The notes under the pieces were generated by a model, which was not told the origin of the DNA, made no database searches, and saw only the letters and a program-made list of their open reading frames with translations. This document shows positions 13,006 through 55,656 of a stretch of DNA of 64,000 nucleotides, in pieces. Source of the stretch: an uncultured Clostridia bacterium. Lineage in GTDB: Bacteria; Bacillota; Clostridia; TANB77; CAG-508. The position numbers and the translations under genes are program-made. The DNA lies in the NCBI GenBank assembly GCA_944392455.1, contig CALXWP010000007.1, positions 43,559-107,558 of the forward strand. Reading direction: 5' to 3'. Each line of letters opens with the position of its first letter. Positions within the stretch are counted from its first letter, which is position 1.

Positions 13006-13034
13006 ATTATATCACTTTTTTACAGTATTTTCAA
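13006..13034 (-). promoter_or_regulatory. Sigma-A promoter (TTGAAA, 17-nt spacer, extended -10 TGATATAAT) for the 12535..12954 gene
   Basis: Read on the minus strand. An inverted repeat tagactt-tagg-aagtcta lies between the promoter and the RBS agagaggg. Confidence 0.45.
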
Positions 13035-24017: not shown

Positions 24018-24986
24018 TTATTTATTATTTACACTACATTGTATTTTTTCATTTTTTCTTCTATCAATAGCATAAGCACTTCCCATTGTAGTTTTTGCTA
24101 AATGTTTGACTTGTGCCCCTACCTCTCCTATTTCAAGTACATTATGAAATCTGCTTTTATGAGCTACAACTACTCCTATTGAAAGTGATGTTAATGGAAA
24201 TTCTTCTATTATTCCCTTTCTATTAGGAACTTCTAAATACCCTTTTTCTATATCATTTTCATTAAAGAATTTAATAACACCTTTATCAAATTCAGCAATT
24301 ATATTTTGACATATTGTTTCATAATCATCTTCTATAGATATTATTCCAACAAAATCATCCCCACCAATATGTCCTACAAATGTATTACCACTATTAGAAT
24401 ATCTTTCTATATTACTTGTTATTATTCTTGCTGTAAATTTAATTATTTCATCTCCATTTAAAAATCCATACACATCATTATATGCTTTAAAATTATCTAA
24501 GTCAAAGTAAAGCATTACAAATTCTTCTTTATTTAGTAATCTCTTTTTCATTTCTGCTTGTATTTGTACATTTCCAGGTAACCCAGTTAATGGGCTAACC
24601 CTCCTATTAGTATCTAATAATCTAATAATATTTTTTATAGTATAATATAAATATTCTTTATCTATAGGAGCCTTTATATAATGCTCTACACATTCTTTTA
24701 ATACTTCTATTTTATGTTCTTTACTTCTATCTGAAGATATAACAATAATAGGGGTAATATTGTTGTCTTCATTTTGCCTTATTCGTTTACATATCTCAAT
24801 TATATTTTCTTCTATCCCATCTTCATTAATTATAATAAGAGATGGAATATTTTTTAATGCATCATCAATATTGTTTGTAGTTACTTTTTTCAATTTGATT
24901 TTATAATCTTTTTCATCTTTAAATAGATTTAAAATGATTTTTTTTAGCTCATCATTATCATCTATTATATAAATATCCTGAGCCAT
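24018..24986 (-). CDS. Response-regulator receiver + GGDEF domain protein (non-canonical GGDDF motif)
   Basis: 322 aa. GGDEF-domain blocks (SPLTGLPGN, YFDLDNFKAYND, GDEIIK). The signature reads HIGGDDFVG. The receiver's expected phospho-Asp position appears to be Asn (LIIINEDG). Confidence 0.75.
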   Translation of the reverse strand: MAQDIYIIDDNDELKKIILNLFKDEKDYKIKLKKVTTNNIDDALKNIPSLIIINEDGIEENIIEICKRIRQNEDNNITPIIVISSDRSKEHKIEVLKECVEHYIKAPIDKEYLYYTIKNIIRLLDTNRRVSPLTGLPGNVQIQAEMKKRLLNKEEFVMLYFDLDNFKAYNDVYGFLNGDEIIKFTARIITSNIERYSNSGNTFVGHIGGDDFVGIISIEDDYETICQNIIAEFDKGVIKFFNENDIEKGYLEVPNRKGIIEEFPLTSLSIGVVVAHKSRFHNVLEIGEVGAQVKHLAKTTMGSAYAIDRRKNEKIQCSVNNK

Positions 24987-24987
24987 T

Positions 24988-25773
24988 TTATCTCTCCTTA
25001 TATTTCTTAATTTTATCTTTTATGTCTTCTATTAAATTCTTTTGTTTCATAAACTTTGTTATGTTTTCAGAATGCATTTCTGGGAATGCTTTTTTTAGTT
25101 TTATAATTCTTTTATATATTTTTATTTTTAATATTGATTGTTTTGTTTTTAAGTCTTCAATTAAATTCTGTATATGTTCTTTTGAAGTATTTTCCAAATG
25201 CTTTTCTTGTTTTAATTCCAATAATTTCTCCTTTATTGTTTCTCCTATTTCAAATACTTCCTGGATTTTCTTATCTATAATCATTATTTTAAATATTGTT
25301 ATAGCTGCATCTATAAGGATGACTATCGATAATATTATTTCTATGTATATTAAAATCTGATATGGAATATAACTTACCAATTTTTCTATAAATGGATGAA
25401 TTATAAATATTAGTAATACTCCTAATATTCCCCAATATATAGAATTTTTCAAGCATACTCTTCCTTTTATGTTAAATTTCAAATCTGAATAATCCCAATA
25501 TTTTGTTTTAAAACATTTCTCTAATATTACTGCTACAATATATTCCCATGTAGAGAACACAAGAAAACTTAATATAAATATTACTATAATATTATTAGAT
25601 ACAATACTTAAACTAATCATTAATATTGCACCAATTCCATACATAGGACAAAAAGTTCCATATAAGAACCCACTATTCGTCGCTTTTTTTAATATTATAG
25701 TTTTGTATATTGACTCTAAACACCAACCTAAAAATGAATATATTATAAAATAAAATATTATTTTATCCTGCAT
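24988..25773 (-). CDS. Polytopic membrane protein (DUF1113 / putative ABC-transporter type IV family) with coiled-coil tail
   Basis: 261 aa. N-terminus FxxYSFLGWCLE and multiple TM helices. Confidence 0.45.
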   Translation of the reverse strand: MQDKIIFYFIIYSFLGWCLESIYKTIILKKATNSGFLYGTFCPMYGIGAILMISLSIVSNNIIVIFILSFLVFSTWEYIVAVILEKCFKTKYWDYSDLKFNIKGRVCLKNSIYWGILGVLLIFIIHPFIEKLVSYIPYQILIYIEIILSIVILIDAAITIFKIMIIDKKIQEVFEIGETIKEKLLELKQEKHLENTSKEHIQNLIEDLKTKQSILKIKIYKRIIKLKKAFPEMHSENITKFMKQKNLIEDIKDKIKKYKER

Positions 25774-26722
25774 ACTGAAACTCCATTGATCCTGTTACAG
25801 AAAGTCCGTTTATATTTTCAACTCTAATGCTAAATGTATTAGTACCTTGTACTAAATTTAATGAAAATGTTGCTTCTGTTTTATTTATATCATTCATTGA
25901 ATAAACTGCTCCATTTAGGTTTACCTCAATTGATTGAATTCCATCAGCATCAGCCACTTCTATCATTAATTTACCTGTTTCTTCATCTACATATAAATTT
26001 TTGATTTCAGGTCTTTCAGTAGAAATTACTATTTCTGGGCTTTCTTCTGTTGTAGTATTTCCAGATGAATCTACAGCAGTAACTGTTATTTTATGTGTTC
26101 CTCTTCCAATCTCTTCTTGTGTAATAGCATACTCTATTATTTTATCTGTTTCATTATTCTTATCAATTCTTATTTCTTCTCCGTCATCTATTCGATATAT
26201 CATATAGTCAATTTCCGTTTCATCTTCAGCTTTTACTCTTATGCTTGTTGCCTGTTGGTCTATGCTTACTGCTGGCTTTGCTATATCTATTCCATCTAAC
26301 ACAATATCTTTTGTATATGTTACAGCTCTTCCTGTTTCATCTTCTAATATTATAGTTAATACACTATTTTCAGATGGTAAAATAATTTCTTCTTGAAAAC
26401 TCGTTGAATTTTCTGGTATTGATCTTTCCTCTGAATTTGCCCAACGATATCTAAAAGTTTCTATATTATATACACTTTGTACATCTACCATTAGTGTATC
26501 ATTTACTCTAGTTATGATTATGTTAGCTAAGTTATCTGTATTACTAGCTTTAGAATCTCTATATAATGCATATGAACTATGACCAATTAAACATAAACCA
26601 AAAATAATTATAAAAACAGCAAAGAATTTAACAATTTTTGTTATCTCTACTGATGCAGTTGTATTTCTATTTCTCTTTCTTTTTTCCTTTTTCTCGACTT
26701 CCGTTACTAAAATTTGGTTCAT
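25763..26722 (-). CDS. Membrane-anchored protein with beta-rich (Ig-like) extracellular domains
   Basis: 319 aa. Basic N-terminus, one TM, then Thr/Ser/Val-rich repeats. Overlaps the preceding gene by 11 nt. Confidence 0.4.
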   Translation of the reverse strand: MNQILVTEVEKKEKRKRNRNTTASVEITKIVKFFAVFIIIFGLCLIGHSSYALYRDSKASNTDNLANIIITRVNDTLMVDVQSVYNIETFRYRWANSEERSIPENSTSFQEEIILPSENSVLTIILEDETGRAVTYTKDIVLDGIDIAKPAVSIDQQATSIRVKAEDETEIDYMIYRIDDGEEIRIDKNNETDKIIEYAITQEEIGRGTHKITVTAVDSSGNTTTEESPEIVISTERPEIKNLYVDEETGKLMIEVADADGIQSIEVNLNGAVYSMNDINKTEATFSLNLVQGTNTFSIRVENINGLSVTGSMEFQYAG

Positions 26723-26841
26723 TCGTTTTCCTCCACTTATATTTTGAATTATATCATATGCTTTTTTTAATGTAAATATTTATTAAAAAATATCCCTAGA
26801 TAAATATTTATCTAGGGATATTAATAATTCCGGTTAGAATT

Positions 26842-28010
26842 CTATACTAAAACAAATTTTTTAATTAACACTAATCCAGCTCCAAGTATTACTAGTACTC
26901 CTGTTATTACTCCTATGTAGTGTCCTCCTATACCTGATACTATTGATAATACTACTGATGCTTCATCTATGTCATCTTCTCCTTTTTCAAAGTTATCTGG
27001 CACAGAATCTATATCTTCTACTGGTTCATGATTCTCATCACTATCTTCTGATATCTCTGCCCAGTTTGTCTTTACTCCTAGGTTGTTTTGTCCATTTATC
27101 CATCTAAATGTTATCTCTATTACTACACTTTCTCCTGGTTCTAATAATGTATCATTTAGTTGAGTTGTTGTTACTGTCTCTCCATCTTCTGATAATTCCC
27201 ATCCTTCATTATCTTCTTCTACAAACTCTAGTCCTTCTGGTATGTAGTCTGTTATTTCTTCTGCATATCCTGCCATATTTCCTTCGTTTGTTATTCTTAT
27301 TTGATATGTGAATTTTATTACCGCTGTCTCTATTTTATGGTTTCCTAATTCTACTTTTACTACTTCTTCTGGATCATCTTCAAAATGATGTCCTGTCTCT
27401 TCTACATATGTCTCTCCATCTAATATCATTGTTACTTTTGATACTATCTTTCTTAATGCTAAATCAAAGTATGTTACTTTTACTTTTTCTATATCGATGT
27501 CATCTTCTCCATCTTCATCATTGTCTGGCACAGAATCTATATCTTCTACTGGTTCTCCATCTTCATCACTATCTTCTGATATTTCCGCTGTGTTTATTAA
27601 CACTCTATCTGATGTATTTGGTTCTATTACTCTAAATGCTATTTGTACATCTTTATAGTCTGGCTGACTCATTGTTTCTGGATCAAATGCTTCTATTAGA
27701 TTATCTCTTCCTGTCTCATCCCCTTGTTCCTTTGATAAGTAATCTGTTCTTATTGTTTCTGCTTCTTCTACATTTTCTGTTACATTTCCATTTGCATCAT
27801 ACATTACCCATCTATACTCTGTGTTTACTTCATTTTCTGGTAAAAATTCTAGTCCTTCTGGTAAGTCATCTTTTACTTCTTCTGCATATCCTGCAACTTC
27901 ACCTTCATTATATACTCTTATTGTATATATTACTATGTCTCCATTACTTACTTCAACAGGTTCTTTTGTATGTTCATATGTATATTCACCATTATTGTTT
28001 GTAAATACTG
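26842..28010. repeat. Inter-gene duplicated segment (near-identical to 33022-34190)
   Basis: Antisense shadow ORFs 27108-27311 vs 33285-33488 and 27408-27635 vs 33585-33812 translate identically. The offset is 6177 nt. Confidence 0.8.
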
Positions 28011-31000
28011 GTACTCTATTTGTTATTTCTTCTTCATTTATTCCTGTTATGAATTTTCTTAATGCTAAATCAAAATATTTTACTTTGATTTTCTCTATAT
28101 CAATATCATCTTCACCATCTTCATCATTATCTGGCACAGAATCTATATCTTCTACTGGATTTCCATCTTCGTCGCTATCTTCTGATATTTCTGCTGTATT
28201 TATTATTATTCTATCTGATGTATTTGGTTCTGTAACTTTAAATGCTATTTGCACTTCTTTATAGTCTGGTTCATCCATTGTATCTGGATCAAATGCTTCT
28301 ATTAGATTATCTCTTCCTGATAGCCCCCCTTGTTCCTTTGATAAGTAATCTGTTCTTATTGTTTCTGCTTCTTCTACATTTTCTGTTACATTTCCATTTG
28401 CATCATACATTACCCATCTATACTCTGTGTTTACTTCATTTTCTGGTAAAAATTCTAGTCCCTCTGGTAAGTCATCTTTTACTTCTTCTGCATATCCTGC
28501 CTCAGTTCCTTCATTGTATATTCTCAATGTATATATTACTATATCATTTGTTGCGACTTCAACAGGTTCTTTTGTATGTTCATATGTATATTCACCATCA
28601 TTGTTTGTAAATACTGGTACTCTATTTGTTATTTCTTCTTCATTTACTCCTGTGATGAATTTCCTTAATGCCAAATCAAAAATATTATTTTCAATTGTTA
28701 CTTCTATAATACTTCCATCTACTACTTGTAAATTTACAAGTTCACCATTTATTCTTTCTGCTGTAATAACATATTCACCATTTATTAATTTAACATCAAT
28801 CTCTATTTCTACTGGTTCTGGTAATATATTATATCCTTCTGGTGCTCCTGTTTCTGTTATAATATATCTATGTGTTCCTTCAGCTGTTATTTTAATTTTT
28901 CCTGTTACAACTTCTCCATTTTCATTTGTTGTTAAATTATCAAATGTGTTTATAACTGTTCCATCTGAATCCACTTCTTCTATTTTAAATACTGCATTAC
29001 TTAATCTATCTGATATTCCATTTTGTTTTATTAACTTAATTTCATAATCACCTACAGTAGCTGGTAACACTAACTCTTCATAATCGTCATCATCCTCATA
29101 TCCATGTCCTTGTTCTGATGTTCCTGGATTATAATTATTTTTCTGATCATCTGTCAAATTATCTTCTACTGAATCTCTATCATTTACTTCATTTCTTTCT
29201 ATATTTTCTGATTTTGTTATTTCTGCAACATTTTTTAAACTTATACTTGTAACTTGTTTTGTAGCTACTACCTCACATTCAATTTCTAAATCCACATAAT
29301 CAATTGTTTTTCCATCAAATGCGTCAATTAAATCATCTGATAAAGCAGTCGTTACTATTGTTCTTCCATCACCATTTGGATTTGTCCAGCCATTATCTTC
29401 ATTAATTTGGCTATCTTCTTTTAATATTAATCCTTCTGGTAAATAATCTGTTACTTCTTCTGCATATCCTGCTTCTTTTCCTTCGTTATATATTCTTATT
29501 ATATATGTTACTGTATCTCCTGTATTAACACTTATTGGATCTTTTGTATGTAACTTATCTGCTGTTGTAACTCTTCCATTATCTAAATCTTCTACTGCAT
29601 TATCAGTTATTTCTGGTTCTCTACTTACTTCTACATTTTCTCCATTTACTTTTGTAATAAATTTTCTTAATGCTAAATCAAAATATGTTAATTTTACTTT
29701 TTCAATATCAATATCATCCTCACCATCTTCATCATTATCTGGTACAGAATCTATATCTTCTATTGGATCACCATCTTCATCACTATCTTCTGATATTTCT
29801 GCTGTATTTATTAAAATCCTATCCGATGTATTTGGTTCTATTACTTTAAATGCTATCCTTACTTCTTTATAGTCTGGCTCATTCATTGTATCTGGATCAA
29901 ATGCTTCTATTAGATTATCCCTTCCTGTCATCTCTCCTTGAGCCTTAGATAAATAATCTGTTCTTATTGTTTCTGCTTCTGATACATTCTCTGTCACATT
30001 TCCTTCTGCATTATACATTACCCATCTATAATTGATATTTGTTGTATTATCAGGTAAGAATTCTAATCCTTCTGGAATATCATCTTTTACTTCTTCTGCA
30101 TATCCTGCAATATCCCCTTCATTATATATCCTTAATGTATATATTACAGTATCTTCTGTTTGTACTAAAACAGGGTCTTTTGTATGTTCATATGAATACT
30201 CGCCATTATTATTTTTAAATACAGGTTCTCTATTTGTTATACTTTGACTGTTTACTCCTGTTATGAATTTTCTTAATGCCAAATCAAATTTTTGAACAAC
30301 AATTTTTTCAAAATCATCATCATCTTGTTGTCCTGGTATATAACTGTCTCCTCTATTTATTTCTGTATCTTTATAGTTTGGAAGAGTTGTATCTGATGGT
30401 AATGTTACATTATCTGCTCCAGAGTCTCTATCTGTTACTGTTCCTCCTGATCTATCAGTAAATCCTGATATTTCTGCAATATTGGTTAATTTTTCACCTG
30501 CTACAGCTGTACTTTTTACTCTACATTTAATTTGTACTTCTGCATAATCTAGTGAACTTCCATTAAATGCATTTATTATTTCACCTGCTAAATAAGTGGT
30601 CGTTACTGTTCTACCATCTCCAGATACGTTCCAGCCTCTTTGAGTATTAAAGCTATCGTTTACAAATTCTAAGTTTTCTGGTAAATGATCTGTTATCTCT
30701 GTTACTATTCCATCAAGTTGTCCTTCATTATATACTCTTATTGTGTATATTACTTCATCTCCAACTTTCACAGCAATTGGTGTTTTTGAATGATTGTATA
30801 TTGCTGTTGTTGCAGATCCATTTGCCAAATTTGTTATATTTACGCTTGGAGCTCTATTTACACTTTCTCCATCAACATTACTAATAAATTTTCTTAAAGA
30901 TAAATCAAAATATTTTCCTAGCATTACTAAGTCTTCAAAATCGTCATCATCTTCTTGTGATGTTGTTCCATATCCATCCACCCTTACATTATCTGGTGTT

Positions 31001-32685
31001 GAATCTCTATCTGGTAAACCTTCATCATTTGTTGCTCCTGTTATTTCTGCTATATTCTTTAAGTTTATATTTGATTCTGTTACACTTGCTGTTACTTCAC
31101 ATTCTATTTGTACATCTAAATAACTTAATGTTGTTCCATCAAATGCTGGTATTGTTTGTCCACTTAAATAACTTGTTGTTACTTCTCCATTACTTCCTGT
31201 TTGCCATCCATATTTTGTATTTATACTGCTTCCTGCTTTTAAACTTAATCCTGTTGGTAAGTAATCTGTTATCTCAGTGGCCTGTCCATCTACTTCTCCT
31301 TCGTTATATACCCTTATTGTATATATTACACTATCTCCTGTCTCTACTGTTAATGCATTCTTTGGATGTATCTTCTCTGCTGTTGTTATTCTTCCTGCCT
31401 CTAAGTTATTTAATGTTTCCTCACTTATTTGTGGTACTCTACTTGTACTTGGAGCTACTCCATTTATACTTGTTATGAATTTTCTTAATGCTAAATCAAA
31501 TATTTTTTCTTCTTCTGGTGGTTTTATAAATTCTGTACTATCACTATATTCTTCTTGCTCTCTCTCTATTATTACTACCGGTTGTTCTGATGAATTTGCT
31601 CCCTCTACTGCCCAGTATGTTATTTTTGTATCATAATATTCTCCACTTATACTTAATGTTACTTTATCTACATTTGTTGTTTTTGATACTACTATATAAA
31701 AGTCTTGTCCTATTGTTGCTTCTATACTACTAAATCTACTTCCACTTGCATTTTGTAATGTTGGGTTTAATGTTGTTCCTTCTCCATTTTTGAATACTGC
31801 TTCTAGTGTTGCATCTGTGTCACTTATTTTATTTATTCTAAATGGTCCTATTACATAATTACTTCCACTATCTGTTATTGTTTTTGTTGTCTCTGCTATT
31901 TCATATGGTTGACTCACTGTTGTTGGTGTGTAACTTGACGCATGTCCTTCTGCTTCTTCTATTAAATAGCTATATAATGCTTTTGCTTCCTCATTTCTTA
32001 TATCTCCTTCTACTGCTCCTTCTCCCTTCTTATCTCCTAAGGGATTATATCCTGAGTCTTGTCCTGCTACTTGATTTATCCATAATGAAAAGTTTCCACT
32101 ATCTCCTACATCATATGCATCTCCATCATTTGTAAAATGCCATATTGCTAATTGTTGTACTACATCTATATCATCATCTGTTAGTGGACTTCCTGTTAAT
32201 CCTGCATTATCTAATAATAAATCTCTATAATCTGATGCTGCTTGTTTTTCCTCTGTTGTTGCTCCTGATTTTGCTGGTACATATACATTCTCTAATAACC
32301 ACATTAATGAATTATACGTACTTCCACTTGGCAATGCATTTACATATGGACTTGGTATTGAATCTCTATCTTTCATATCAAAATATCTTGTATACTCTCT
32401 ATGCGTTGGATTTCCACTTCCGAATTCACTTGACCCAAATCCTGGTCCTCCTTTTAAACAGTAGATTGTACTATCATAGTTTGCTGTTGATCCATTACTA
32501 TTTGTTTCTACTATTTTCCATACATTCTTTTCTAATGCCTTATATCCATATCCTGAACTTCTTAATGCTTTTATTGTTAAGTATTTGCTTCCTGTTGCTG
32601 CATTTGAAACATTAAAATTACCACTAACTGCTATTGTTAGTATTGTCATTAGAATGATTAATATTACTCCTTTTATTTTTCTCAT
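26842..32685 (-). CDS. Giant surface protein: signal peptide, putative thioester (TED-like) adhesin domain, seven DUF11-like repeats plus one CnaB-like domain, C-terminal TM anchor
   Basis: 1947 aa. Signal peptide ending NVSNA. Candidate thioester residues YCLK and QQLAIW. Repeats beginning FDLALRKFIT... with the DUF11-like block TYTIRVYNEG..AGYAEEV.D.LPEGLEF. Acidic Asp-rich linkers DIDSVPDNDEDGEDDIDIEK. C-terminal hydrophobic segment then KKFVLV. No LPXTG. Confidence 0.7.
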   Translation of the reverse strand: MRKIKGVILIILMTILTIAVSGNFNVSNAATGSKYLTIKALRSSGYGYKALEKNVWKIVETNSNGSTANYDSTIYCLKGGPGFGSSEFGSGNPTHREYTRYFDMKDRDSIPSPYVNALPSGSTYNSLMWLLENVYVPAKSGATTEEKQAASDYRDLLLDNAGLTGSPLTDDDIDVVQQLAIWHFTNDGDAYDVGDSGNFSLWINQVAGQDSGYNPLGDKKGEGAVEGDIRNEEAKALYSYLIEEAEGHASSYTPTTVSQPYEIAETTKTITDSGSNYVIGPFRINKISDTDATLEAVFKNGEGTTLNPTLQNASGSRFSSIEATIGQDFYIVVSKTTNVDKVTLSISGEYYDTKITYWAVEGANSSEQPVVIIEREQEEYSDSTEFIKPPEEEKIFDLALRKFITSINGVAPSTSRVPQISEETLNNLEAGRITTAEKIHPKNALTVETGDSVIYTIRVYNEGEVDGQATEITDYLPTGLSLKAGSSINTKYGWQTGSNGEVTTSYLSGQTIPAFDGTTLSYLDVQIECEVTASVTESNINLKNIAEITGATNDEGLPDRDSTPDNVRVDGYGTTSQEDDDDFEDLVMLGKYFDLSLRKFISNVDGESVNRAPSVNITNLANGSATTAIYNHSKTPIAVKVGDEVIYTIRVYNEGQLDGIVTEITDHLPENLEFVNDSFNTQRGWNVSGDGRTVTTTYLAGEIINAFNGSSLDYAEVQIKCRVKSTAVAGEKLTNIAEISGFTDRSGGTVTDRDSGADNVTLPSDTTLPNYKDTEINRGDSYIPGQQDDDDFEKIVVQKFDLALRKFITGVNSQSITNREPVFKNNNGEYSYEHTKDPVLVQTEDTVIYTLRIYNEGDIAGYAEEVKDDIPEGLEFLPDNTTNINYRWVMYNAEGNVTENVSEAETIRTDYLSKAQGEMTGRDNLIEAFDPDTMNEPDYKEVRIAFKVIEPNTSDRILINTAEISEDSDEDGDPIEDIDSVPDNDEDGEDDIDIEKVKLTYFDLALRKFITKVNGENVEVSREPEITDNAVEDLDNGRVTTADKLHTKDPISVNTGDTVTYIIRIYNEGKEAGYAEEVTDYLPEGLILKEDSQINEDNGWTNPNGDGRTIVTTALSDDLIDAFDGKTIDYVDLEIECEVVATKQVTSISLKNVAEITKSENIERNEVNDRDSVEDNLTDDQKNNYNPGTSEQGHGYEDDDDYEELVLPATVGDYEIKLIKQNGISDRLSNAVFKIEEVDSDGTVINTFDNLTTNENGEVVTGKIKITAEGTHRYIITETGAPEGYNILPEPVEIEIDVKLINGEYVITAERINGELVNLQVVDGSIIEVTIENNIFDLALRKFITGVNEEEITNRVPVFTNNDGEYTYEHTKEPVEVATNDIVIYTLRIYNEGTEAGYAEEVKDDLPEGLEFLPENEVNTEYRWVMYDANGNVTENVEEAETIRTDYLSKEQGGLSGRDNLIEAFDPDTMDEPDYKEVQIAFKVTEPNTSDRIIINTAEISEDSDEDGNPVEDIDSVPDNDEDGEDDIDIEKIKVKYFDLALRKFITGINEEEITNRVPVFTNNNGEYTYEHTKEPVEVSNGDIVIYTIRVYNEGEVAGYAEEVKDDLPEGLEFLPENEVNTEYRWVMYDANGNVTENVEEAETIRTDYLSKEQGDETGRDNLIEAFDPETMSQPDYKDVQIAFRVIEPNTSDRVLINTAEISEDSDEDGEPVEDIDSVPDNDEDGEDDIDIEKVKVTYFDLALRKIVSKVTMILDGETYVEETGHHFEDDPEEVVKVELGNHKIETAVIKFTYQIRITNEGNMAGYAEEITDYIPEGLEFVEEDNEGWELSEDGETVTTTQLNDTLLEPGESVVIEITFRWINGQNNLGVKTNWAEISEDSDENHEPVEDIDSVPDNFEKGEDDIDEASVVLSIVSGIGGHYIGVITGVLVILGAGLVLIKKFVLV
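30950..32685. repeat. Inter-gene duplicated segment (near-identical to 35600-37356)
   Basis: Shadow ORFs 30957-31478 vs 35610-36131 are identical over 522 nt. Offset ~4653 nt. Copy 1 carries an extra ~1.5 kb of internal repeats. Confidence 0.8.
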
Positions 32686-33021
32686 TACTACCCTTCCCTT
32701 TTTCTCATATAATAATACTTATATATATAATTTTACTGGTTTTAAAGCCTTTAGTCAATAACAATTATTTACATTGTATTTAACATATTTTTTATACACT
32801 TTAATTCTTTTACGGAAGTATATTTTTTCAAACTTTTATCTCAATTATTACATTTTTGTAATATTTTGGTTCGTTTTTTTCTTTATAAATTTGTTTTTTT
32901 ACTTTTATGTCAAATATTAATTTATATATTAAAATATTTTTAATATATATTTAGAAAAACAAAGACCTAATTACTATATTCCCTAGTATTTAAGCCTTTG
33001 TTTATTATTTTAAATTATTTA

Positions 33022-36000
33022 TTATAGTACAAATCTCTTGATCAATACTAATCCAGTTCCAAGTATTACTAGTACTCCTGTTATTACTCCTATATAATGT
33101 CCTCCTACACCTGATACTATTGATAATACTACTGATGCTTCATCTATATCATCTTCTCCTTTTTCAAAGTTATCTGGCGTTGAATCTATATCTTCTACTG
33201 GCTCATGATCTTCATCACTATCCTCTGATATCTCAGCCCAGTTTGTCTTTACTCCTAGGTTGTTTTGTCCATTTATCCATCTAAATGTTATCTCTATTAC
33301 TACACTTTCTCCTGGTTCTAATAATGTATCATTTAGTTGAGTTGTTGTTACTGTCTCTCCATCTTCTGATAATTCCCATCCTTCATTATCTTCTTCTACA
33401 AACTCTAGTCCTTCTGGTATGTAGTCTGTTATTTCTTCTGCATATCCTGCCATATTTCCTTCGTTTGTTATTCTTATTTGATATGTGAATTTTATTACCG
33501 CTGTCTCTATTTTATGGTTTCCTAATTCTACTTTTACTACTTCTTCTGGATCATCTTCAAAATGATGTCCTGTCTCTTCTACATATGTCTCTCCATCTAA
33601 TATCATTGTTACTTTTGATACTATCTTTCTTAATGCTAAATCAAAGTATGTTACTTTTACTTTTTCTATATCGATGTCATCTTCTCCATCTTCATCATTG
33701 TCTGGCACAGAATCTATATCTTCTACTGGTTCTCCATCTTCATCACTATCTTCTGATATTTCCGCTGTGTTTATTAACACTCTATCTGATGTATTTGGTT
33801 CTATTACTCTAAATGCTATTTGTACATCTTTATAGTCTGGTTGAGTCATTGTTTCTGGATCGAATGCTTCTATTAGATTATCTCTTCCTGACAACTCTCC
33901 TTGTGCCTTTGATAAATAATCTGTTCTTATTGTTTCTGCTTCTTCTACATTTTCTGTTACATTTCCTTCTGCATCGTACATTACCCATCTATATTCTGTA
34001 TTTACTTCATTTTCTGGTAAAAATTCTAATCCTTCTGGTAAGTCATCTTTTACTTCTTCTGCATACCCTGCCTGTGTTCCTTCATTATATACTCTTATTG
34101 TATATATTACTATGTCTCCATTACTTACTTCTACTGGTTCCTTTGTATGTTCATATGTATATTCACCATCATTGTTTGTAAATATTGGCACTCTGTTTGT
34201 TATTTCTTCTTCATTTACTCCTGTGATGAATTTCCTTAAGGCCAAATCAAAGTATGTTACTTTAATTTTTTCTATATCAATATCATCTTCACCTTCTTCA
34301 TCATTATCTGGCACAGAATCTATATCTTCTACTGGATTTCCATTTTCGTCACTATCTTCTGATATTTCTGCTGTATTTATTATTATACTATCTGATGTAT
34401 TTGGTAATGTCACCTTAAATGCTATCCTTACTTCTTTATAGTCTGGCTCATTCATTGTATCTGGATCAAATGCTTTTATTAGGTTATCTCTTCCTGATAG
34501 CTCACCTTGTTCCTTTGATAAATAGTCTGTTCTTATTGTTTCTGCTTCTTCTACATTTTCTGTTACATTTCCTTCTGCATCATACATTACCCATCTATAG
34601 TTTATATTCGTTGTATTATCTGGTAAAAATTCTAATCCTTCTGGAATATCATCTTTTACTTCTTCTGCATATCCTGCAATGTCTCCTTCATTATATATTC
34701 TTAATGTATATATTACTGTATCTCCTGTTGCTACTAGAATAGGTTCTTTTGTATGTTCATATGTATACTCACCATTATTGTTTGTAAATACTGGTACTCT
34801 ATTTGTTATTTCTTCTTCATTTACTCCTGTTATGAATTTTCTTAATGCTAAATCAAATACTTGAATTACTACTTTTTCAAAATCATCATCATCTTGTTGT
34901 CCTGGTATATAGCTGTCTCCTCTATTTATCTCTTCATCTTTATAATTTGGTAATGTCTCATCTGATGGTAATGTTACATTGTCTTTTTGAGAGTCAATAT
35001 CTGTTATTTCATTATCATCAGAATCTGTAAATTCTGTTATTTCTGCGATATTAGTTAATTTTTCATCAGGTACTACTGTGTCAGTTACTTTACATTTAAT
35101 TTGTACATCTATATAGTCTAATGAACTTCCACTAAATGCTTCTAATATAACCTTATCAGCGCCATCTTTTCTATTTTCATAAATTGTATCTCTATTTGCA
35201 GAGTATTCTGTATCTGGTGATGTTATATCTGTTGTTACAGTTCTTCCATCAGCTGATACTCTCCATCCATATTGTGCATTAAAACTGTCATTTATAAATT
35301 CTAGATTTTCTGGTAAATAATCTGTTATTTCTTTTACATATCCATCAAGTTGTCCTTCATTATATACTCTTATTGTATATATTACTTCATCTCCTGCACT
35401 TACAGAAACTGGTGTCTTTGGATGGTTATATATTGCTGTTGTTGAAGATCCATTTGCTAAATTTGTTACATTTACTACTGGCTCTCTTAAATATCTACCT
35501 GAATTATCTACTAATTCTTCATCATTTACTTGTATTATAAATTTTCTTAAAGATAAATCAAAATATTTTCCTAGCATTACTAAGTCTTCAAAATCATCAT
35601 CATCTTCTTGTGATGTTGTTCCATATCCATCCACCCTTACATTATCTGGTGTTGAATCTCTATCTGGTAAACCTTCATCATTTGTTGCTCCTGTTATTTC
35701 TGCTATATTCTTTAAGTTTATATTTGATTCTGTTACACTTGCTGTTACTTCACATTCTATTTGTACATCTAAATAACTTAATGTTGTTCCATCAAATGCT
35801 GGTATTGTTTGTCCACTTAAATAACTTGTTGTTACTTCTCCATTACTTCCTGTTTGCCATCCATATTTTGTATTTATACTGCTTCCTGCTTTTAAACTTA
35901 ATCCTGTTGGTAAGTAATCTGTTATCTCAGTGGCCTGTCCATCTACTTCTCCTTCGTTATATACCCTTATTGTATATATTACACTATCTCCTGTCTCTAC

Positions 36001-37356
36001 TGTTAATGCATTCTTTGGATGTATCTTCTCTGCTGTTGTTATTCTTCCTGCCTCTAAGTTATTTAATGTTTCCTCACTTATTTGTGGTACTCTACTTGTA
36101 CTTGGAGCTACTCCATTTATACTTGTTATGAATTTTCTTAATGCTAAATCAAATATTTTTTCTTCTTCTGGTGGTTTTATAAATTCTGTACTATCACTAT
36201 ATTCTTCTTGCTCTCTCTCTATTATTACTACCGGTTGTTCTGATGAATTTGCTCCCTCTACTGCCCAGTATGTTATTTTTGTATCATAATATTCTCCACT
36301 TATACTTAATGTTACTTTATCTACATTTGTTGTTTTTGATACTACTATATAAAAGTCTTGACCTATTGCTTCTTCTATACTATTAATTCTATCTCCACTT
36401 GCATTTTGTAATGTTGGGTTTAATGTTGTTCCTTCTCCATTTTTGAATACTACTTCTAATGTTGCCTCTGTATTACTTATTTTATTTATTCTAAATGGCC
36501 CTATTACATAATTACTTCCACTCTCTGTTATTGTTTTTGTTGTCTCTGCTATTTCATATGGTTGACTTACTGTTGTTGGTGTGTAACTTGATGCATGTGC
36601 TTCTGCTTCTTCTATTAAATATCTATATAATTCTTTTGCTTCTTCATTTCTATCAAATCCATTTACTGCTCCTGCTCCTGCTTCTTCTTCTCCTCCTGAT
36701 AATGGATTATATGCTGAGTCTTGTCCTGCAACTCGGTTTATCCATAATGAAAAGTTTCCACTATCTCCTACATCATATGCATCTCCATCATTTGTAAAAT
36801 GCCATATTGCTAATTGTTGTACTACATCTATATCATCATCTGTTAGGTAGCTTCCTGTTAACCCTGCATTATCCAATAATAGATTTCTGTAATCTGATGC
36901 CGCTTGTTTTTCCTCTGTACTTGCTCCTGATTTTGCTGGCACATATACATTTTCTAATAACCACATTAATGAATTATATGTACTTCCACTTGGCAATGCA
37001 TTTACATATGGACTTGGTATTGAATTTCTATCTTTCATATCAAAATATCTTGTATACTCTCTATGTGTTGGATTTCCACTTCCGAATTCACTTGACCCAA
37101 ATCCTGGTCCTCCTTTTAGACAATAGATTGTACTATCATAATTTGCTGTTGTTCCACTACTATTTGTTTCTACTATTTTCCATACATTTTTTTCTAATGC
37201 CTTATATCCATATCCTGAACTTCTTAACGCTTTTATTGTTAAGTATTTACTTCCTGTTGCTGCATTTGAAACATTAAAATTACTTATTAACATTATTGAT
37301 AATAAGGTCATTATTATAACTAGAGCTACTTTTTTTAGCTTCATATCGATTCCCAT
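33022..37356 (-). CDS. Paralogous giant surface protein (TED-like domain, six DUF11-like repeats, C-terminal TM anchor)
   Basis: 1444 aa. The likely start is the internal Met MKLKKVAL... The N-terminal 330 aa and C-terminal ~390 aa are near-identical to the 1947-aa paralog. Confidence 0.7.
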   Translation of the reverse strand: MGIDMKLKKVALVIIMTLLSIMLISNFNVSNAATGSKYLTIKALRSSGYGYKALEKNVWKIVETNSSGTTANYDSTIYCLKGGPGFGSSEFGSGNPTHREYTRYFDMKDRNSIPSPYVNALPSGSTYNSLMWLLENVYVPAKSGASTEEKQAASDYRNLLLDNAGLTGSYLTDDDIDVVQQLAIWHFTNDGDAYDVGDSGNFSLWINRVAGQDSAYNPLSGGEEEAGAGAVNGFDRNEEAKELYRYLIEEAEAHASSYTPTTVSQPYEIAETTKTITESGSNYVIGPFRINKISNTEATLEVVFKNGEGTTLNPTLQNASGDRINSIEEAIGQDFYIVVSKTTNVDKVTLSISGEYYDTKITYWAVEGANSSEQPVVIIEREQEEYSDSTEFIKPPEEEKIFDLALRKFITSINGVAPSTSRVPQISEETLNNLEAGRITTAEKIHPKNALTVETGDSVIYTIRVYNEGEVDGQATEITDYLPTGLSLKAGSSINTKYGWQTGSNGEVTTSYLSGQTIPAFDGTTLSYLDVQIECEVTASVTESNINLKNIAEITGATNDEGLPDRDSTPDNVRVDGYGTTSQEDDDDFEDLVMLGKYFDLSLRKFIIQVNDEELVDNSGRYLREPVVNVTNLANGSSTTAIYNHPKTPVSVSAGDEVIYTIRVYNEGQLDGYVKEITDYLPENLEFINDSFNAQYGWRVSADGRTVTTDITSPDTEYSANRDTIYENRKDGADKVILEAFSGSSLDYIDVQIKCKVTDTVVPDEKLTNIAEITEFTDSDDNEITDIDSQKDNVTLPSDETLPNYKDEEINRGDSYIPGQQDDDDFEKVVIQVFDLALRKFITGVNEEEITNRVPVFTNNNGEYTYEHTKEPILVATGDTVIYTLRIYNEGDIAGYAEEVKDDIPEGLEFLPDNTTNINYRWVMYDAEGNVTENVEEAETIRTDYLSKEQGELSGRDNLIKAFDPDTMNEPDYKEVRIAFKVTLPNTSDSIIINTAEISEDSDENGNPVEDIDSVPDNDEEGEDDIDIEKIKVTYFDLALRKFITGVNEEEITNRVPIFTNNDGEYTYEHTKEPVEVSNGDIVIYTIRVYNEGTQAGYAEEVKDDLPEGLEFLPENEVNTEYRWVMYDAEGNVTENVEEAETIRTDYLSKAQGELSGRDNLIEAFDPETMTQPDYKDVQIAFRVIEPNTSDRVLINTAEISEDSDEDGEPVEDIDSVPDNDEDGEDDIDIEKVKVTYFDLALRKIVSKVTMILDGETYVEETGHHFEDDPEEVVKVELGNHKIETAVIKFTYQIRITNEGNMAGYAEEITDYIPEGLEFVEEDNEGWELSEDGETVTTTQLNDTLLEPGESVVIEITFRWINGQNNLGVKTNWAEISEDSDEDHEPVEDIDSTPDNFEKGEDDIDEASVVLSIVSGVGGHYIGVITGVLVILGTGLVLIKRFVL

Positions 37357-37720
37357 CCTTTTACTCCTTATAATATATTTTCTATTTTACTTACATTTTT
37401 TTAGTTAGTCAATATCAATATTTTCCTTATTTTTAACTCAAAAAAACGCCTCAAAAATCTCCTTACGGATATTCGTTCTGAGAATTCATTTTATAATATT
37501 ACGCTTATATTACAATTATATTACATTTTTGTAATATTTTCAATGGTTTTGGCATATTTTCCTAGAAAACATTATGTTTCAGAGATTCTTCTCTTACTTT
37601 TTTTGTAAAATTTTCTTAAATACTATATTTAATATGAATTATTTAAATAATGTTGTATTTTTCTATATGATAATATAAACTTAATATATATTATAAAAGA
37701 AAGATAAAAGGATTAATAAA

Positions 37721-38434: not shown

Positions 38435-38508
38435 TGGAGGCGACACCCGGATTTGAACCGGGGATCAGAGTTTTGCAGACTCGTGCCTTACCACTTGGCT
38501 ATATCGCC
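38435..38508 (-). tRNA. tRNA-Cys (GCA)
   Basis: Reverse complement GGCGATATAGCCAAGTGGTAAGGCACGAGTCTGCAAAACTCTGATCCCCGGTTCAAATCCGGGTGTCGCCTCCA forms a cloverleaf. Anticodon loop CTGCAAA. CCA is encoded. Confidence 0.9.
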
Positions 38509-38591
38509 ATATACTATAATATATGCTTATAAAAATAAAAAATTACAAATTAAATTAAATTTTATAAAAAATAAAAAAGCAGTAGTAAAAT

Positions 38592-38665
38592 TGGAGGCGA
38601 CACCCGGATTCGAACCGGGGATCAGAGTTTTGCAGACTCGTGCCTTACCACTTGGCTATATCGCC
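38592..38665 (-). tRNA. tRNA-Cys (GCA), second copy
   Basis: Identical to the first copy except one T-loop base. Confidence 0.9.
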
Positions 38666-38685
38666 ATATACTACTGCTTTTTTTG

Positions 38686-38761
<76 letters not shown>

Positions 38762-38929
38762 ATATTGTCATTTTTTAAGAACAATTAATATAATAGCAAA
38801 AAAAAATATAAAAGTCAATAGATAGGTTTTAAATAAATTTATTATTATATATATTGAAAAATACGAGTCAATTGATATAATTATGTTACTATATTTTATA
38901 ATTATTTATTAAAATGTTGGGAGATTATT

Positions 38930-41328: not shown

Positions 41329-42696
41329 CTAATAACCTCTTTCTGTTCTTTGAGGAGCTCCATATTCTTCTGCAATTTCATCATGAATTGCTTCGATTTT
41401 TTCATCAGGAGTTTTTCCTCCTCTTTCATTATATCTTCGTACAAAATCATCAACATTAGAATGATCTTTTTCAGCTTCTTTTCTTAACGTTGTTTCTGAT
41501 CCATCTTCTAATACTATTATGTCATCTGCTGTTAATTGGTCATTACCTGCTGTATCATCCATATTTCTTAATTCTGTCTCTCCATCTCTTTCTATTTCTT
41601 CCTCTGATCTATCCAATTCATCTTCTATTTCTGTATTTTTAGTTTTATCCATTACCTCTCTAACTTCTCTAGTAGTTGGTCTTTGATTTTTTGTTTCGAT
41701 TGGTGCTGATAAATACCTTTCATCTTTATCTTTACTTAGATCTGCTCTTACATAATCAACTTCTAAAGTTCCATATTGTCCTACTCTAACTGAAAGCATT
41801 TCTTCTTGTCCATTTACTTTGCTTCTTCCATTAATTCTTACCATTCCTGCTACTTGTTCTTCTTGTACCACACTTCCATCTCTACTATTTATTGAAGTTA
41901 CAGTTTGCCCTGTTGTTGTTCCTTCTATATTTTGTAAACTATCTATAGTATGTACATTCCCATCTTTATCTAACCCAACAAATGAAAACCTACCATTTTT
42001 CCCCTTCGAATGATCAGAAAATACAACATTAACTTTAACAATTCCTTTTTCTTTTATTTCAGGAATCATATCTGCTAATGTCTCTGTTTGAGTAACTTTT
42101 GCATTTGGATCAATTTCCTGTTTTTCAGCTATCTTATCAAATTGGAGTTTTTGATTAGCTTTCATTGTAGAATATGCTTGGATATCTTCGGTTTCTAATA
42201 TTTTTGACATTTTATCCAATTCCTTATTTGATTGTTTTTCATCCAGTTCCTCTTTTGTTAAAACTAAATCTTCTTTTCCTAATTCTTCTGGAAGCTCAAA
42301 TTCAGCTTCATCTAAAGTTAATGTATCAAAATATTCTTTATTTACTTTTTCTAAATCCTCTAAAAATTCATGGTCAAATGTAACCTCTCCCATTTCGTTT
42401 ACAGTTGCTATTAATTTATTGTCTTTATCATATATTTCATAAGCTATTTTTTCCTGTTGGTCTTCATCTTCTCTAGATTTTGGTTTTTCTTGCTTTTTTT
42501 CGCTATCTTTGAGTTTAACAATATATGCATCATTTATAGCTAAGCCCGATCCTTTAAATTCAAAATCTCTATAATATCCAATATTATCTACTTCTTGATT
42601 TCTTGCTTCTAATTTTTCTGATATTTCTGCACGAAGATTTAACATATTATTAGTTACTTCATTTCTTTTCTTATCTTTCATATCTTCATCTCCCAA
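41329..42696 (-). CDS. Hypothetical acidic, highly charged soluble protein (last gene of the T4SS-like module)
   Basis: 455 aa. No TM segment, D/E/K-rich, no recognisable motifs. Confidence 0.4.
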   Translation of the reverse strand: MGDEDMKDKKRNEVTNNMLNLRAEISEKLEARNQEVDNIGYYRDFEFKGSGLAINDAYIVKLKDSEKKQEKPKSREDEDQQEKIAYEIYDKDNKLIATVNEMGEVTFDHEFLEDLEKVNKEYFDTLTLDEAEFELPEELGKEDLVLTKEELDEKQSNKELDKMSKILETEDIQAYSTMKANQKLQFDKIAEKQEIDPNAKVTQTETLADMIPEIKEKGIVKVNVVFSDHSKGKNGRFSFVGLDKDGNVHTIDSLQNIEGTTTGQTVTSINSRDGSVVQEEQVAGMVRINGRSKVNGQEEMLSVRVGQYGTLEVDYVRADLSKDKDERYLSAPIETKNQRPTTREVREVMDKTKNTEIEDELDRSEEEIERDGETELRNMDDTAGNDQLTADDIIVLEDGSETTLRKEAEKDHSNVDDFVRRYNERGGKTPDEKIEAIHDEIAEEYGAPQRTERGY

Positions 42697-42790
42697 TATT
42701 CTTATATTAATATTATACTTTAAATATCTATTTTTTTCAACAATATAGAATAAAGCAAATACTATAGTTAGTATTTGCTTTATTTTTAGC

Positions 42791-44155
42791 TTACTCTACA
42801 TTAAATGACATTGTAAAATTTGTTCCTTCTCCTAGCTTAACTATAAATGTTTTTGTTATAGCTTGGCTGTTTGCATTATTTTTATCTGTAAATTTCGCAT
42901 CAAATATATATAGATCTCCGCTGTTTTGATAATTAGAAAATTCTACATTGTTAGATGTATAGAATGTATTTTTTACATATGTTTCAAAATCAGCTTCTGT
43001 AGCAAAGTTATTTTGCCTAAATGTTGCATCTAATTTATTATATACATATGTATAATCTCCATCATTTATTGCATCTACAATTTTTTGAGAATTTAATCCA
43101 GCCTTTTCAGCATCATTTGAACTATTATATTCTTCAAGAAAATCAGGCAAATCTATTGTATATGTATCTAAAACTACATCATAATTTGTAATATTAGTTT
43201 CTGTGAAAATATAATATTTACCATATTGATCAATACATATATACTCTTTCTTTCCATCTATTGCATTTACTTTATATCCTTGAATACTTGCAGTTTCAAT
43301 ATTTAACTTATTATCATTTACATATTGTAAAAAGTTCTCATAACTTCCAAATTTAGCATCCCTATATTCTTGATTTAATAAATTGTATGCATCTTCTGTA
43401 TGTTGCGTCATTTTTTCTCTATATTCAGAAAAATATTGTTTTGTAATATACTCTTCTGTTGCAGAAACATCTAGGAAGGTATTATAATCGTTTACTTCAA
43501 TATTTCCAGAATTTATATTTATGGCATCATAACTCATATTTTCATTATAATTATATTTTTCTAAAAAATCTTCTAGAAATATAGAATAAGTATTATTAGT
43601 ATAGTCTATTTTTATTAATAAATTAAATGGTTTATTATTTAGATTTGCTGTAACAAATGCTATTTTTATATTACTGCTTATATCATATGTTAAAACATTT
43701 ACTAAATTTAAATCATAAGAAACAGTTGCTTGAAAGTTTCCATTTTGGCTATATTCTTTTTGTTTTTCTATTATCATATTATTTTCTATTGCTAAATCAG
43801 AAATATATTGTGTATCTAATATATTCTTTATTGCCTCTGTTCCTTGTCGTTCTGATTGTGTTTTTGCATCTTCTAGTGAAATACCAGCTTTTACAATATC
43901 AACATATGAGTCACCATTTATTTGTTTTACATATACTAAATAATTATTCAAAATTTCCTTGATTGTATAATATGTTTTATAATCACTTACAACTGAAAAT
44001 CCCACATTTTCGCTACTTTGTGTATTTGTTGCGTTTTCAGCATTTTCTCCATCTTCTTGTGCATTCCCTCTTGTATTAAATATGATAACTGCAGCTATTA
44101 TTATAATTACAAGAAGAATAGTTAATAATATTATTATATTTTTTAATTTTTTCAT
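42791..44155 (-). CDS. Membrane-anchored extracytoplasmic protein (possible TcpC/VirB8-like)
   Basis: 454 aa. Single N-terminal TM, N/Y-rich ectodomain. Assignment rests on position in the module only. Confidence 0.35.
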   Translation of the reverse strand: MKKLKNIIILLTILLVIIIIAAVIIFNTRGNAQEDGENAENATNTQSSENVGFSVVSDYKTYYTIKEILNNYLVYVKQINGDSYVDIVKAGISLEDAKTQSERQGTEAIKNILDTQYISDLAIENNMIIEKQKEYSQNGNFQATVSYDLNLVNVLTYDISSNIKIAFVTANLNNKPFNLLIKIDYTNNTYSIFLEDFLEKYNYNENMSYDAININSGNIEVNDYNTFLDVSATEEYITKQYFSEYREKMTQHTEDAYNLLNQEYRDAKFGSYENFLQYVNDNKLNIETASIQGYKVNAIDGKKEYICIDQYGKYYIFTETNITNYDVVLDTYTIDLPDFLEEYNSSNDAEKAGLNSQKIVDAINDGDYTYVYNKLDATFRQNNFATEADFETYVKNTFYTSNNVEFSNYQNSGDLYIFDAKFTDKNNANSQAITKTFIVKLGEGTNFTMSFNVE

Positions 44156-44199
44156 TATTTCCTCCTAGTCTGTTTTTTAGCTTTTGCTATTATTCTATA

Positions 44200-47964: not shown

Positions 47965-48093
47965 AAACTCCTTTTATTTATCCATTTATTATCAAAAATT
48001 TTTTATGCATATTTTATATATTATACTACTTTTTTCAACATTTTTCAATTGTAAACTACTTTGGTTCTATTGATCTTTTAACTACGTATAATT

Positions 48094-49050: not shown

Positions 49051-49140
49051 TTTTTTCTCCTTTAATCTTTATTTTTTAAAATAGAGCAGAAAATTTATTT
49101 TCTGCTCTTCTTTGATGTTTTATTTAGATATTAGCAATTA

Positions 49141-51975: not shown

Positions 51976-51984
51976 ATTCTCCCC

Positions 51985-55532: not shown

Positions 55533-55579
55533 ATTAATATAATTTATATTATAGCAGATTTTTTCCTAAAAAGATACAA

Positions 55580-55616: not shown

Positions 55617-55656
55617 TATATTTGTAATATTATTGTAATGTTTCTGTAATATTATG

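Follow-up and report, generated by a model that had tools for sequence, protein, structure and literature searches.

A tandem pair of probable thioester and isopeptide adhesins with CLIPPER stalks in an uncultured gut Clostridium

Two adjacent, intact open reading frames (ORFs) on the minus strand of a 64,000-nucleotide stretch of DNA, called here the window (positions 43,559 to 107,558 of contig CALXWP010000007.1, assembly GCA_944392455.1), encode giant surface proteins, A and B. They are probably paralogous fibrillar adhesins of the TIE type (thioester and isopeptide domains), belonging to an uncultured low-GC gut Clostridium. Each begins with a Sec-type signal peptide, followed by a class II thioester domain (TED) as head, a stalk of CLIPPER repeats and a hydrophobic C-terminal tail. 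The initial annotation, made from the letters alone, had described two neighbouring minus-strand genes for proteins of 1947 and 1444 amino acids (aa), both with signal peptides, and these ORFs and their Sec-type signals, with predicted cleavage between VSNA and the following A in both proteins, are confirmed. The basic-hydrophobic-AxA pattern of the A signal peptide is also found in 36 homologs.

26842..32685, minus strand: gene A, 1947 aa; signal peptide, class II TED head, seven CLIPPER units, one SpaA/CnaB-type domain, transmembrane tail
33022..37356, minus strand: gene B, 1444 aa, paralog of A; signal peptide, class II TED head, five CLIPPER units, transmembrane tail
32599..32685, minus strand: signal peptide of A, residues 1-29, ending at VSNA before A, as read from the sequence

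Covalent adhesins of the TIE type are a known class, to which A and B add a well-supported member and no new kind of system. Mildly unusual are the replacement of LPXTG by a membrane anchor, the two stalk lengths under gene conversion, and the fixed position near a chromosomal cluster resembling a type IV secretion system (T4SS). Thioester adhesins have mostly been studied in pathogens; here the same head is carried on a CLIPPER stalk with a predicted membrane anchor, at a core locus conserved across hundreds of uncultured gut Clostridia. The residues to be tested form a compact set: C76 with Q368 for the thioester, and one Lys, one Asp and one Asn per repeat for the isopeptide.

The head is defined by the following features.

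31501..32598, minus strand: head of A, residues 30-395; class II TED with beta-barrel, three-helix lobe, inserted beta-sandwich and long terminal hairpin
32458..32460, minus strand: Cys76 of A, predicted thioester Cys in Y-C-L-K ([YFL]CΦζ), at the end of model strand E44-47
32140..32157, minus strand: QQLAIW of A, residues 177-182; TQxxΦW variant in model helix H141-156, flanking the bond
31582..31584, minus strand: Gln368 of A, predicted thioester Gln in EQPVV, at the start of the last long model strand E341-358
36154..37260, minus strand: head of B, residues 33-401; Cys79 at 37120-37122, QQLAIW at 36802-36819, Gln374 at 36235-36237

The Pfam TED family (PF08341) matches residues 74-246 of A with 30.2 bits and residues 77-252 of B with 31.2 bits (cutoff 22), and one homolog is named at NCBI 'Cys-Gln thioester bond-forming surface protein'. 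The motifs YCLKGG and VVQQLAIW, reported earlier for both proteins, are each present once per protein, the Cys being C76 in A and C79 in B; the former motif conforms to the thioester Cys definition [YFL]CΦζ (PMC4450167). All 37 head homologs keep residues Y75, C76, Q178, A180 and W182 unchanged. An AlphaFold model of the head, built from the homolog alignment, has a mean predicted local distance difference test score (pLDDT) of 90.9 and runs through helix 198-218 and strands 232-330 to a long strand pair (312-330 and 341-358). This order is that of class II TEDs, whose hallmark is that helix α3 and the terminal P/Q hairpin are separated by an inserted beta-sandwich (Miller et al., 2018; PMC6194298). 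The only Foldseek matches of the model at E<1e-3 are class II TEDs, namely 6fwy (Enterococcus faecium TIE86) and 6fwv (Bacillus anthracis BaTIE), and the longest structural alignment is with TIE86 (250 of 280 residues). Both heads are class II thioester domains, as the modelled fold and the conservation support. The TED assignment of the initial annotation thus held as to family, by both the hidden Markov model (HMM) and the AlphaFold checks, but the class II type with its beta-sandwich insertion had been overlooked.

The glutamine of the bond had been placed in VVQQLAIW. In TEDs the TQxxΦW helix, widespread though not universal, adjoins the bond and is non-essential, and the Gln that forms the bond is found on a beta-strand towards the domain end (PMC4450167, PMC6194298). 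The Gln of VVQQLAIW is therefore not the bonding residue, and the conserved candidate is Q368 of A (Q374 of B). It is present in 30 of 31 homologs, is the sole conserved Gln within the C-terminal half of the head and stands 27 residues before the head end. The pairs C76-Q368 in A and C79-Q374 in B are thus the likely thioester partners, judged from the alignment and the model. An hhalign comparison of the pLS20 TIE (Gln256) with the head profile gave a probability of 0.4%, which is not significant. A pLW043-encoded candidate for SaTIE, considered as a route to place C76 and Q368, is a protein without Cys; the assignment was wrong and was dropped.

The least similar part of the two heads is the loop between the second and third helices (codons ~212-245 of A and ~215-251 of B), which reads GQDSGYNPLGDKKGEGAVEGDIRNEE in A against GQDSAYNPLSGGEEEAGAGAVNGFDRNEE in B, with 78% DNA identity over that 100-nt window. 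This loop may be where the heads of A and B differ in specificity.

The stalks are composed as follows.

26977..31500, minus strand: stalk of A, seven CLIPPER units and a SpaA/CnaB-type domain
30910-31500 (R1), 30289-30909 (R2), 29683-30288 (R3) and 29050-29682 (R4), minus strand: CLIPPER units R1-R4 of A
28681..29049, minus strand: SpaA/CnaB-type domain, in A only; residues 1213-1335, with E-box-like motif YIITETGAPEGY
28075-28680 (R5), 27469-28074 (R6) and 26977-27468 (R7), minus strand: CLIPPER units R5-R7 of A
33154..36153, minus strand: stalk of B; R1 35563-36153, R2 34858-35562, R3 34252-34857, R4 33646-34251, R5 33154-33645

The repeats are ~200 aa long and each opens with FDL[AS]LRK. 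Their earlier description as DUF11-type repeats opening with FDLALRK is borne out by Pfam DUF11/CLIPPER (PF01345; cutoff 24.6), which matches A in seven stretches (154.1 bits, E=2e-45) and B in five (117.2 bits, E=6e-34); the NCBIfam model TIGR01451 also matches the stalk. The count of seven repeats given for A is right, but B has five and not six. The CnaB search proposed at the same time returned PF17802 (SpaA/CnaB-type) above its cutoff of 23.1 in A, with 37.1 and 43.4 bits, and a domain of this type lies at the equivalent position of the long gene in L002, the locus of the closest relative. The fourth unit of A is 334 aa long because this domain is included in it. The Asp-rich linkers noticed earlier are indeed present, with six DxDxDG motifs in A and two in B. 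A model of the last two repeats, R6 and R7 (A residues 1534-1947), has a pLDDT of 91.8 and is all-beta, with immunoglobulin (Ig)-like folds. Foldseek of the two-domain repeat model returned only generic tandem Ig legs (integrin α, PrgB, AgI/II, Cpe0147), with 9IFR outside the top 50, and because these matches are generic they do not discriminate between cross-link chemistries.

DUF11 was renamed CLIPPER by Costa et al. (2025), who described it as CnaA-like and solved 9IFR, in which Lys715 and Asn806 form an isopeptide with a catalytic Asp nearby; the bond confers thermal and protease stability (PMC12617251). When the construct of Table S6 of that paper is translated from residue 708, K715, N806, C818 and C821 are found as stated, and the sole nearby Asp is residue 749, given as 748 in the main text. 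In the adhesins considered here, three residues are 100% conserved across 81 units from 13 proteins and occur in all 12 window repeats: Lys in FDLALRK, Asp in [TK]DxLP and Asn in NxAEI. Aligned with the crystallised CLIPPER domain, the repeat HMM places the conserved Asp on the Asp of NDTLGQGL (E=3e-7), and in a global profile alignment N806 falls on the conserved Asn, at an hhalign probability of only 29%. By analogy, the CLIPPER units are each probably locked by a Lys-Asn isopeptide.

Several observations weigh against this interpretation of head and stalk. NCBIfam TQXA_dom scores 14.9 against a cutoff of 30.4 and stays below threshold. The Cys and Gln of the A head are 292 residues apart, compared with 171-204 in verified class II TEDs, and the residue preceding Q368 is acidic (D/E), not hydrophobic as in the weak ΦQζΦΦ motif. 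Sequence and profile searches of the PDB with the head, two repeats and the profiles A1 and A2 gave zero matches. In the stalk, K715 of 9IFR is not unambiguously alignable to the Lys of FDLALRK, because a hairpin of ~30 residues is inserted after strand 1 in these units. An isopeptide is moreover predicted in only ~45% of the DUF11 domains in the AlphaFold database; the argument for the bond is the conserved triad and not family membership alone.

Taken together, the proposed mechanism would start with export through the Sec signal peptide. The class II head would then form its Cys-Gln thioester unaided, and, by analogy with SfbI-type TEDs, a nucleophilic amine on the target could react with it to give a covalent cross-link. 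A rod of enlarged CLIPPER domains, which are CnaA-like Ig domains, would keep the head at a distance from the cell, each domain being probably locked between its first-strand Lys and the Asn near its end, with the Asp of [TK]DxLP as putative catalyst. The Asp-rich DxDxDG linkers would join the domains and, to judge from the motif, probably bind Ca2+. With two extra CLIPPER units and one CnaB-type domain in A, the same kind of head would be presented on two stalk lengths. The conserved transmembrane helix and short basic tail would hold the protein in the membrane, replacing the LPXTG/sortase anchor. The gene pair would predate the split from a related species, with gene conversion homogenising both its ends.

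TIE proteins as defined by Walden et al. (2015) have a secretion signal, an N-terminal TED, tandem isopeptide or ester domains and 'almost always' a C-terminal LPXTG. In A and B a secretion signal, a TED and tandem isopeptide-type domains are present and LPXTG is absent, as it is also in TIEpLS20. The closest structural relatives are the class II TIEs (BaTIE 6FWV, TIE86 6FWY, SaTIE 6FX6), which give the best structural matches and likewise have a signal peptide, a TED with a beta-sandwich before the terminal hairpin, a [YFL]CΦζ Cys motif, a TQxxΦW-type helix and an Ig-like stalk after the head. However, there is no HMMER-detectable sequence similarity to them, and the heads of A and B are larger, as the wider Cys-Gln spacing reflects. 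Their stalk is of CnaB domains and ends in LPXTG, whereas A and B have CnaA-like CLIPPER domains, Ca-type linkers and a transmembrane helix. TIEpLS20 (gene 34 of the Bacillus subtilis plasmid pLS20) resembles A and B in having a class II TED with a YCΦζ Cys and no LPXTG, in being sortase-independent and in lying beside T4SS genes (PMC8092201). It differs in that its gene is part of a plasmid conjugation operon; the protein is 778 aa long, has a CnaB-like stalk and lacks a transmembrane segment at its C-terminus. A and B are chromosomal and 2-2.5 times longer, have housekeeping genes between themselves and the T4SS-like genes, and show no significant profile alignment with it.

The CLIPPER adhesins, represented by Acinetobacter silvestris B9T28_05395 (9IFR), share with A and B strong PF01345 matches, tandem Ig-like stalk units and Lys, Asp and Asn at the expected places, of which the Asp and Asn align to 9IFR. 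Their units are of ~120 aa and not ~200 aa, and they contain a CxxC disulfide that A and B lack; A and B in contrast have the hairpin after strand 1, a larger middle insertion and DxDxDG linkers. The host of A and B is moreover Gram-positive and the head is a TED, where the Acinetobacter protein has a CshA-like domain. Cpe0147 (CpTIE) has a class I TED and Thr-Gln ester repeats, whereas A and B have a class II TED, an isopeptide-type triad and a transmembrane helix. The anchor of Cpe0147 is an LPXTG signal. Periscope proteins are similar in their rod-like repeat array of high DNA identity, and the 3-7 repeats among orthologs and the similar heads on two stalk lengths recall them (PMC9704523). 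In A and B, however, length is fixed in two genes kept alike by gene conversion, and the repeats (85-91%) are less identical than in classic arrays. A combined literature search found nothing specific, and an exact-protein look-up had no record of the B sequence.

The C-termini of both proteins consist of a hydrophobic helix followed by KKFVLV or KRFVL.

26845..26976, minus strand: C-terminal tail of A, residues 1904-1947; DDIDEASVVLSIVSG, transmembrane helix, LIKKFVLV
33025..33153, minus strand: C-terminal tail of B, residues 1402-1444

In the model of A residues 1534-1947 the terminal helix spans A1922-1946 (model residues 389-413). In the homologs the tail always measures 43 aa, counted from DDxD to the C-terminus, and is strikingly conserved: D1, D2, D4, A6, V8, G15, G34 and I38 are invariant and T14 is conserved in at least 90%. 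The non-LPXTG anchor of the initial annotation is confirmed, LPXTG being found in none of 120 homologs; the window proteins read SIVSG at this place. The tail is read here as a family-specific transmembrane anchor, with a small chance left for processing.

The two genes are alike at their ends. They share 2058 bp at 93.4% on the 5' side and 1830 bp at 93.8% on the 3' side, and within these regions lie two perfect tracts.

30944-31707 = 35597-36360, unstranded: 764-bp perfect tract over the end of the head and R1; recent gene-conversion tract
27059-27663 = 33236-33840, unstranded: 605-bp perfect tract over the last two repeats; recent gene-conversion tract

The earlier figure of more than 1 kb of identical DNA at both ends was overstated, because these are the longest perfect tracts. 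R1 is 100% identical between A and B at the protein level, and the internal repeats of A are 85-91% identical. The middle segments pair with their orthologs in the other genome: A-R2 shares 85% identity with R2 of the long gene in L002 and 65% with B-R2, and A-R4 shares 84% with R4 of that long gene. The ends are more alike within the genome, the A and B heads being 89% identical to each other and 73-74% to their orthologs, and the last repeats 98% compared with 87-90%. Because the middles are orthologous and the ends alike within a genome, the duplication is older than the species split, with both ends homogenised since. On this comparison, gene conversion at both gene ends (head and R1; last repeats and anchor) is real, and the earlier claim to that effect is upheld against the orthologous pair in L002. 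Gene A is 1509 bp longer, in keeping with the ~1.5 kb first noted; the difference codes for two CLIPPER units and the SpaA/CnaB-type domain, and not only for repeats. The pair offers a clean natural case in which gene conversion keeps the functional ends of paralogs alike while stalk length differs. Tandem pairs are found in L002, L005, L056 and L068; most genomes have a single adhesin gene of B-type architecture. Complete head-to-tail orthologs in related genomes, including chromosomes assembled from HiFi reads, number 62 and have 3-7 repeats.

Three alternatives bear on the proteins themselves. That each repeat is stabilised by an intramolecular Thr-Gln ester, as in Clostridium perfringens Cpe0147, was suggested in the initial annotation together with a Gln near each repeat end. 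A Thr or Ser does follow the FDLALRK strand in most repeats, and the fold of the repeat model matches that of the Cpe0147 repeats weakly and in a generic way (4mkm, E=8e-7, rank 45). However, no column of the 81 repeat units reaches at least 60% Gln, the proposed position in A reads Q/Q/R/E/Q/Q/E, and the names and descriptions of the Pfam families listed for A and B at E<=1 mention no ester-bond domain. The ester idea fails on the lack of a conserved Gln and of an ester-bond family, and for domains that belong to CLIPPER, in which the demonstrated cross-link is a Lys-Asn isopeptide, and that keep the Lys/Asp/Asn triad throughout, it is highly improbable. Somewhat less remote, although still unlikely, is that the tail (L[ST][IV]x[TS]G, hydrophobic stretch, LIKK[FY]V[LI]) is a cleavable sorting signal, processed by a sortase-like or other enzyme encoded elsewhere, leaving the mature protein covalently attached to the wall. 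In favour of this are a three-part layout like that of sortase signals and, for a membrane anchor, an unusual degree of conservation at a fixed length. The NVQTG motif reported for Clostridioides difficile SrtB substrates resembles the tail variants SVQTG and TVQTG. Yet no curated sorting-signal model passes its cutoff; with the tail alone, the NCBIfam models NPXTG (12.1 vs 23.5) and srtB_target (10 vs 18.15) align over the hydrophobic part only. In 25 of 180 tails the invariant Gly is preceded by Leu (21), Ser (2) or Ala (2), Ser being the residue in both window proteins, and in the model the motif closes a confidently predicted beta-strand. The earlier statement that no sortase is nearby also holds: no sortase domain was found among the window ORFs scanned with Pfam, and no ORF in the 64-kb window or in 79 related loci (~1.2 Mb in total) carries the TLxTC signature. 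An exhaustive HMMER search of 1.84 billion proteins found the tail on TED-CLIPPER proteins only and on no unrelated protein body, and a word-indexed search returned only fragments of up to 76 aa of the same family. As a portable sorting signal the tail was accordingly rejected, being sub-threshold in NCBIfam and confined to these proteins. The third alternative, that misassembly (collapse, expansion or a chimeric join in near-identical DNA) produced the tandem pair or the repeat number, had been raised from the outset. It draws on the perfect tracts common to both genes, on the similarity of the internal repeats of A and on the many fragmentary database homologs, which imply that assemblers struggle with these genes. 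It is nevertheless very unlikely, because the independent assembly of L002, a different species, also has a short gene followed by a long one (1444 and 1956 aa), with identical domain architecture and with each segment matching in length. Both ORFs are intact, with distinct middle parts that have their own orthologs, tandem pairs recur in the three other loci named above, and the HiFi chromosomes show the single-copy, B-type form.

The TIE-type adhesins lie in a chromosomal setting, the window containing holB, lgt, signal peptidase and PFOR genes. Reference genomes contain the head family at 308 loci, all from uncultured gut Clostridia, including Clostridium sp. CAG:508, CAG:245 and two HiFi metagenome-assembled chromosomes of 1.57 and 1.70 Mb. 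Upstream of the adhesins, on the same strand, is the T4SS-like cluster, and tRNA genes separate the two.

41329-57623, minus strand: T4SS-like cluster, 4-20 kb upstream of the adhesins
55657-56022, 56107-56496 and 56516-56893, minus strand: three TrbC/VirB2-type pilin genes in tandem
55155-55532, minus strand: PrgI/VirB3 gene
38435-38761, minus strand: tRNA genes Cys-GCA, Cys-GCA and Gly-GCC, between the T4SS side and the adhesins
24018-26722, minus strand: three genes directly downstream of the adhesins, conserved with the adhesin in 31-51 of 79 loci

The cluster further encodes a 413-aa protein with weak VirB4-N/TrsD similarity, overlapping a 681-aa VirB4-like ATPase, a 944-aa VirB6-like protein, a 1254-aa wall hydrolase (M23, lysozyme and M15) and 318-, 454- and 455-aa proteins without assigned function. 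The gene order p318 - wall hydrolase - p454 - p455 - PBP5 - adhesin - Big319 - CmpB-like - response-regulator GGDEF - amidase is kept, and its part from p318 to the adhesin is maintained in many genomes, a HiFi chromosome among them. The 64-kb window contains no relaxase, coupling protein or integrase. Because several T4SS-like genes are syntenic with the adhesin in many genomes, the gene content suggests a lineage-conserved chromosomal system rather than a recent integrative and conjugative element; the lineage is one of small-genome (about 1.6-1.7 Mb) uncultured gut Clostridia. A mobile-element origin of the locus was considered and rejected: its DNA has no plasmid match, the head protein has no tblastn plasmid match, and core genes lie in the window. 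The 111-aa ORF at 38453-38788 (plus strand) is spurious, overlying the three tRNA genes, which account for its apparent conservation in other loci.

The neighbouring cluster raises the question of whether the adhesins are its cell-attachment part, acting in mating pairs or cell-cell contact rather than on host or matrix, a proposal that concerns the role only and is compatible with the mechanism outlined above. A precedent exists in TIEpLS20, also a class II TED protein without LPXTG, which is needed for conjugation in liquid and whose Cys is essential; a T4SS-linked role is possible on that account (PMC8092201). The same-strand cluster of pilins, PrgI/VirB3, VirB4-like ATPase, VirB6-like protein and wall hydrolase 4-20 kb upstream, and the kept order from p318 through hydrolase, p454, p455 and PBP5 to the adhesin, point in the same direction and would link class II TED adhesins with a chromosomal T4SS. 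However, PBP5, cytidine deaminase, PNP, UDG and the three tRNA genes intervene, each adhesin gene has its own promoter-like site, and the window contains none of the mobilisation genes named above. A tblastn search of 72,556 plasmids found no relative of the head, the T4SS cluster closest to this one among plasmids is accompanied by an unrelated giant surface protein, and synteny in small genomes may reflect vertical inheritance alone. The role is thus possible but doubtful. A fuller version is less probable still: the adhesin would serve a lineage-conserved chromosomal T4SS-like apparatus as its covalent attachment arm for contact with other bacteria or the host, its tail would dock to Big319 and the CmpB-like protein, and gene conversion would maintain two stalk lengths with near-identical heads.

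That plasmid cluster is L080 (9225-28328 of the Clostridium botulinum plasmid NZ_KT897276), which has the same gene order and a VirB4-like protein 42% identical to the one in the window. About 5 kb downstream of it is a gene for a 1927-aa surface protein with C-terminal choline-binding repeats and neither TED nor CLIPPER, that is, a non-homologous giant in a similar position.

The genes of the downstream trio encode a 319-aa N-terminally anchored Ig-like protein (Big_7/Big_13), a CmpB-like multi-pass membrane protein (PF06541) and a response-regulator GGDEF protein with the signature GGDDF. From their predicted domains, they could provide a link to cyclic di-GMP (c-di-GMP) or membrane partners of the adhesin tail. 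An Rfam scan for c-di-GMP or other riboswitches upstream of the adhesins returned only three tRNAs.

The two adhesin genes are flanked by the following candidate signals.

32730..32862, minus strand: upstream region of A; promoter-like TTGACT-17-TAAAAT at 32758-32730 and palindrome ATTACAAAAATGTAAT at 32847-32862, consensus matches only
37384..37535, minus strand: upstream region of B; identical promoter-like site at 37412-37384 and identical palindrome at 37520-37535, consensus matches only
26789..26822, minus strand: terminator-like hairpin, a 15-bp stem followed by a T run, immediately 3' of gene A

The 16-bp palindrome (given in gene orientation) is common to both genes, ~90-110 bp upstream of the promoter-like sites, and may be an operator shared by A and B. 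The gene B ORF begins with MGIDMKLKK (from 37345-37356), and because homologs begin with MKLK, translation may in fact begin at the second ATG (M5). A Shine-Dalgarno-like AAGGAG in front of the first ATG counts for that codon.

On the far side of the downstream trio is a further pair of large genes.

13031-21164, minus strand: gene for a 1750-aa glycoamylase and GH94 protein, cyclic/linear beta-glucan phosphorylase-like; then gene for a 964-aa protein

The 964-aa protein has no Pfam match and is syntenic in 14 related loci.

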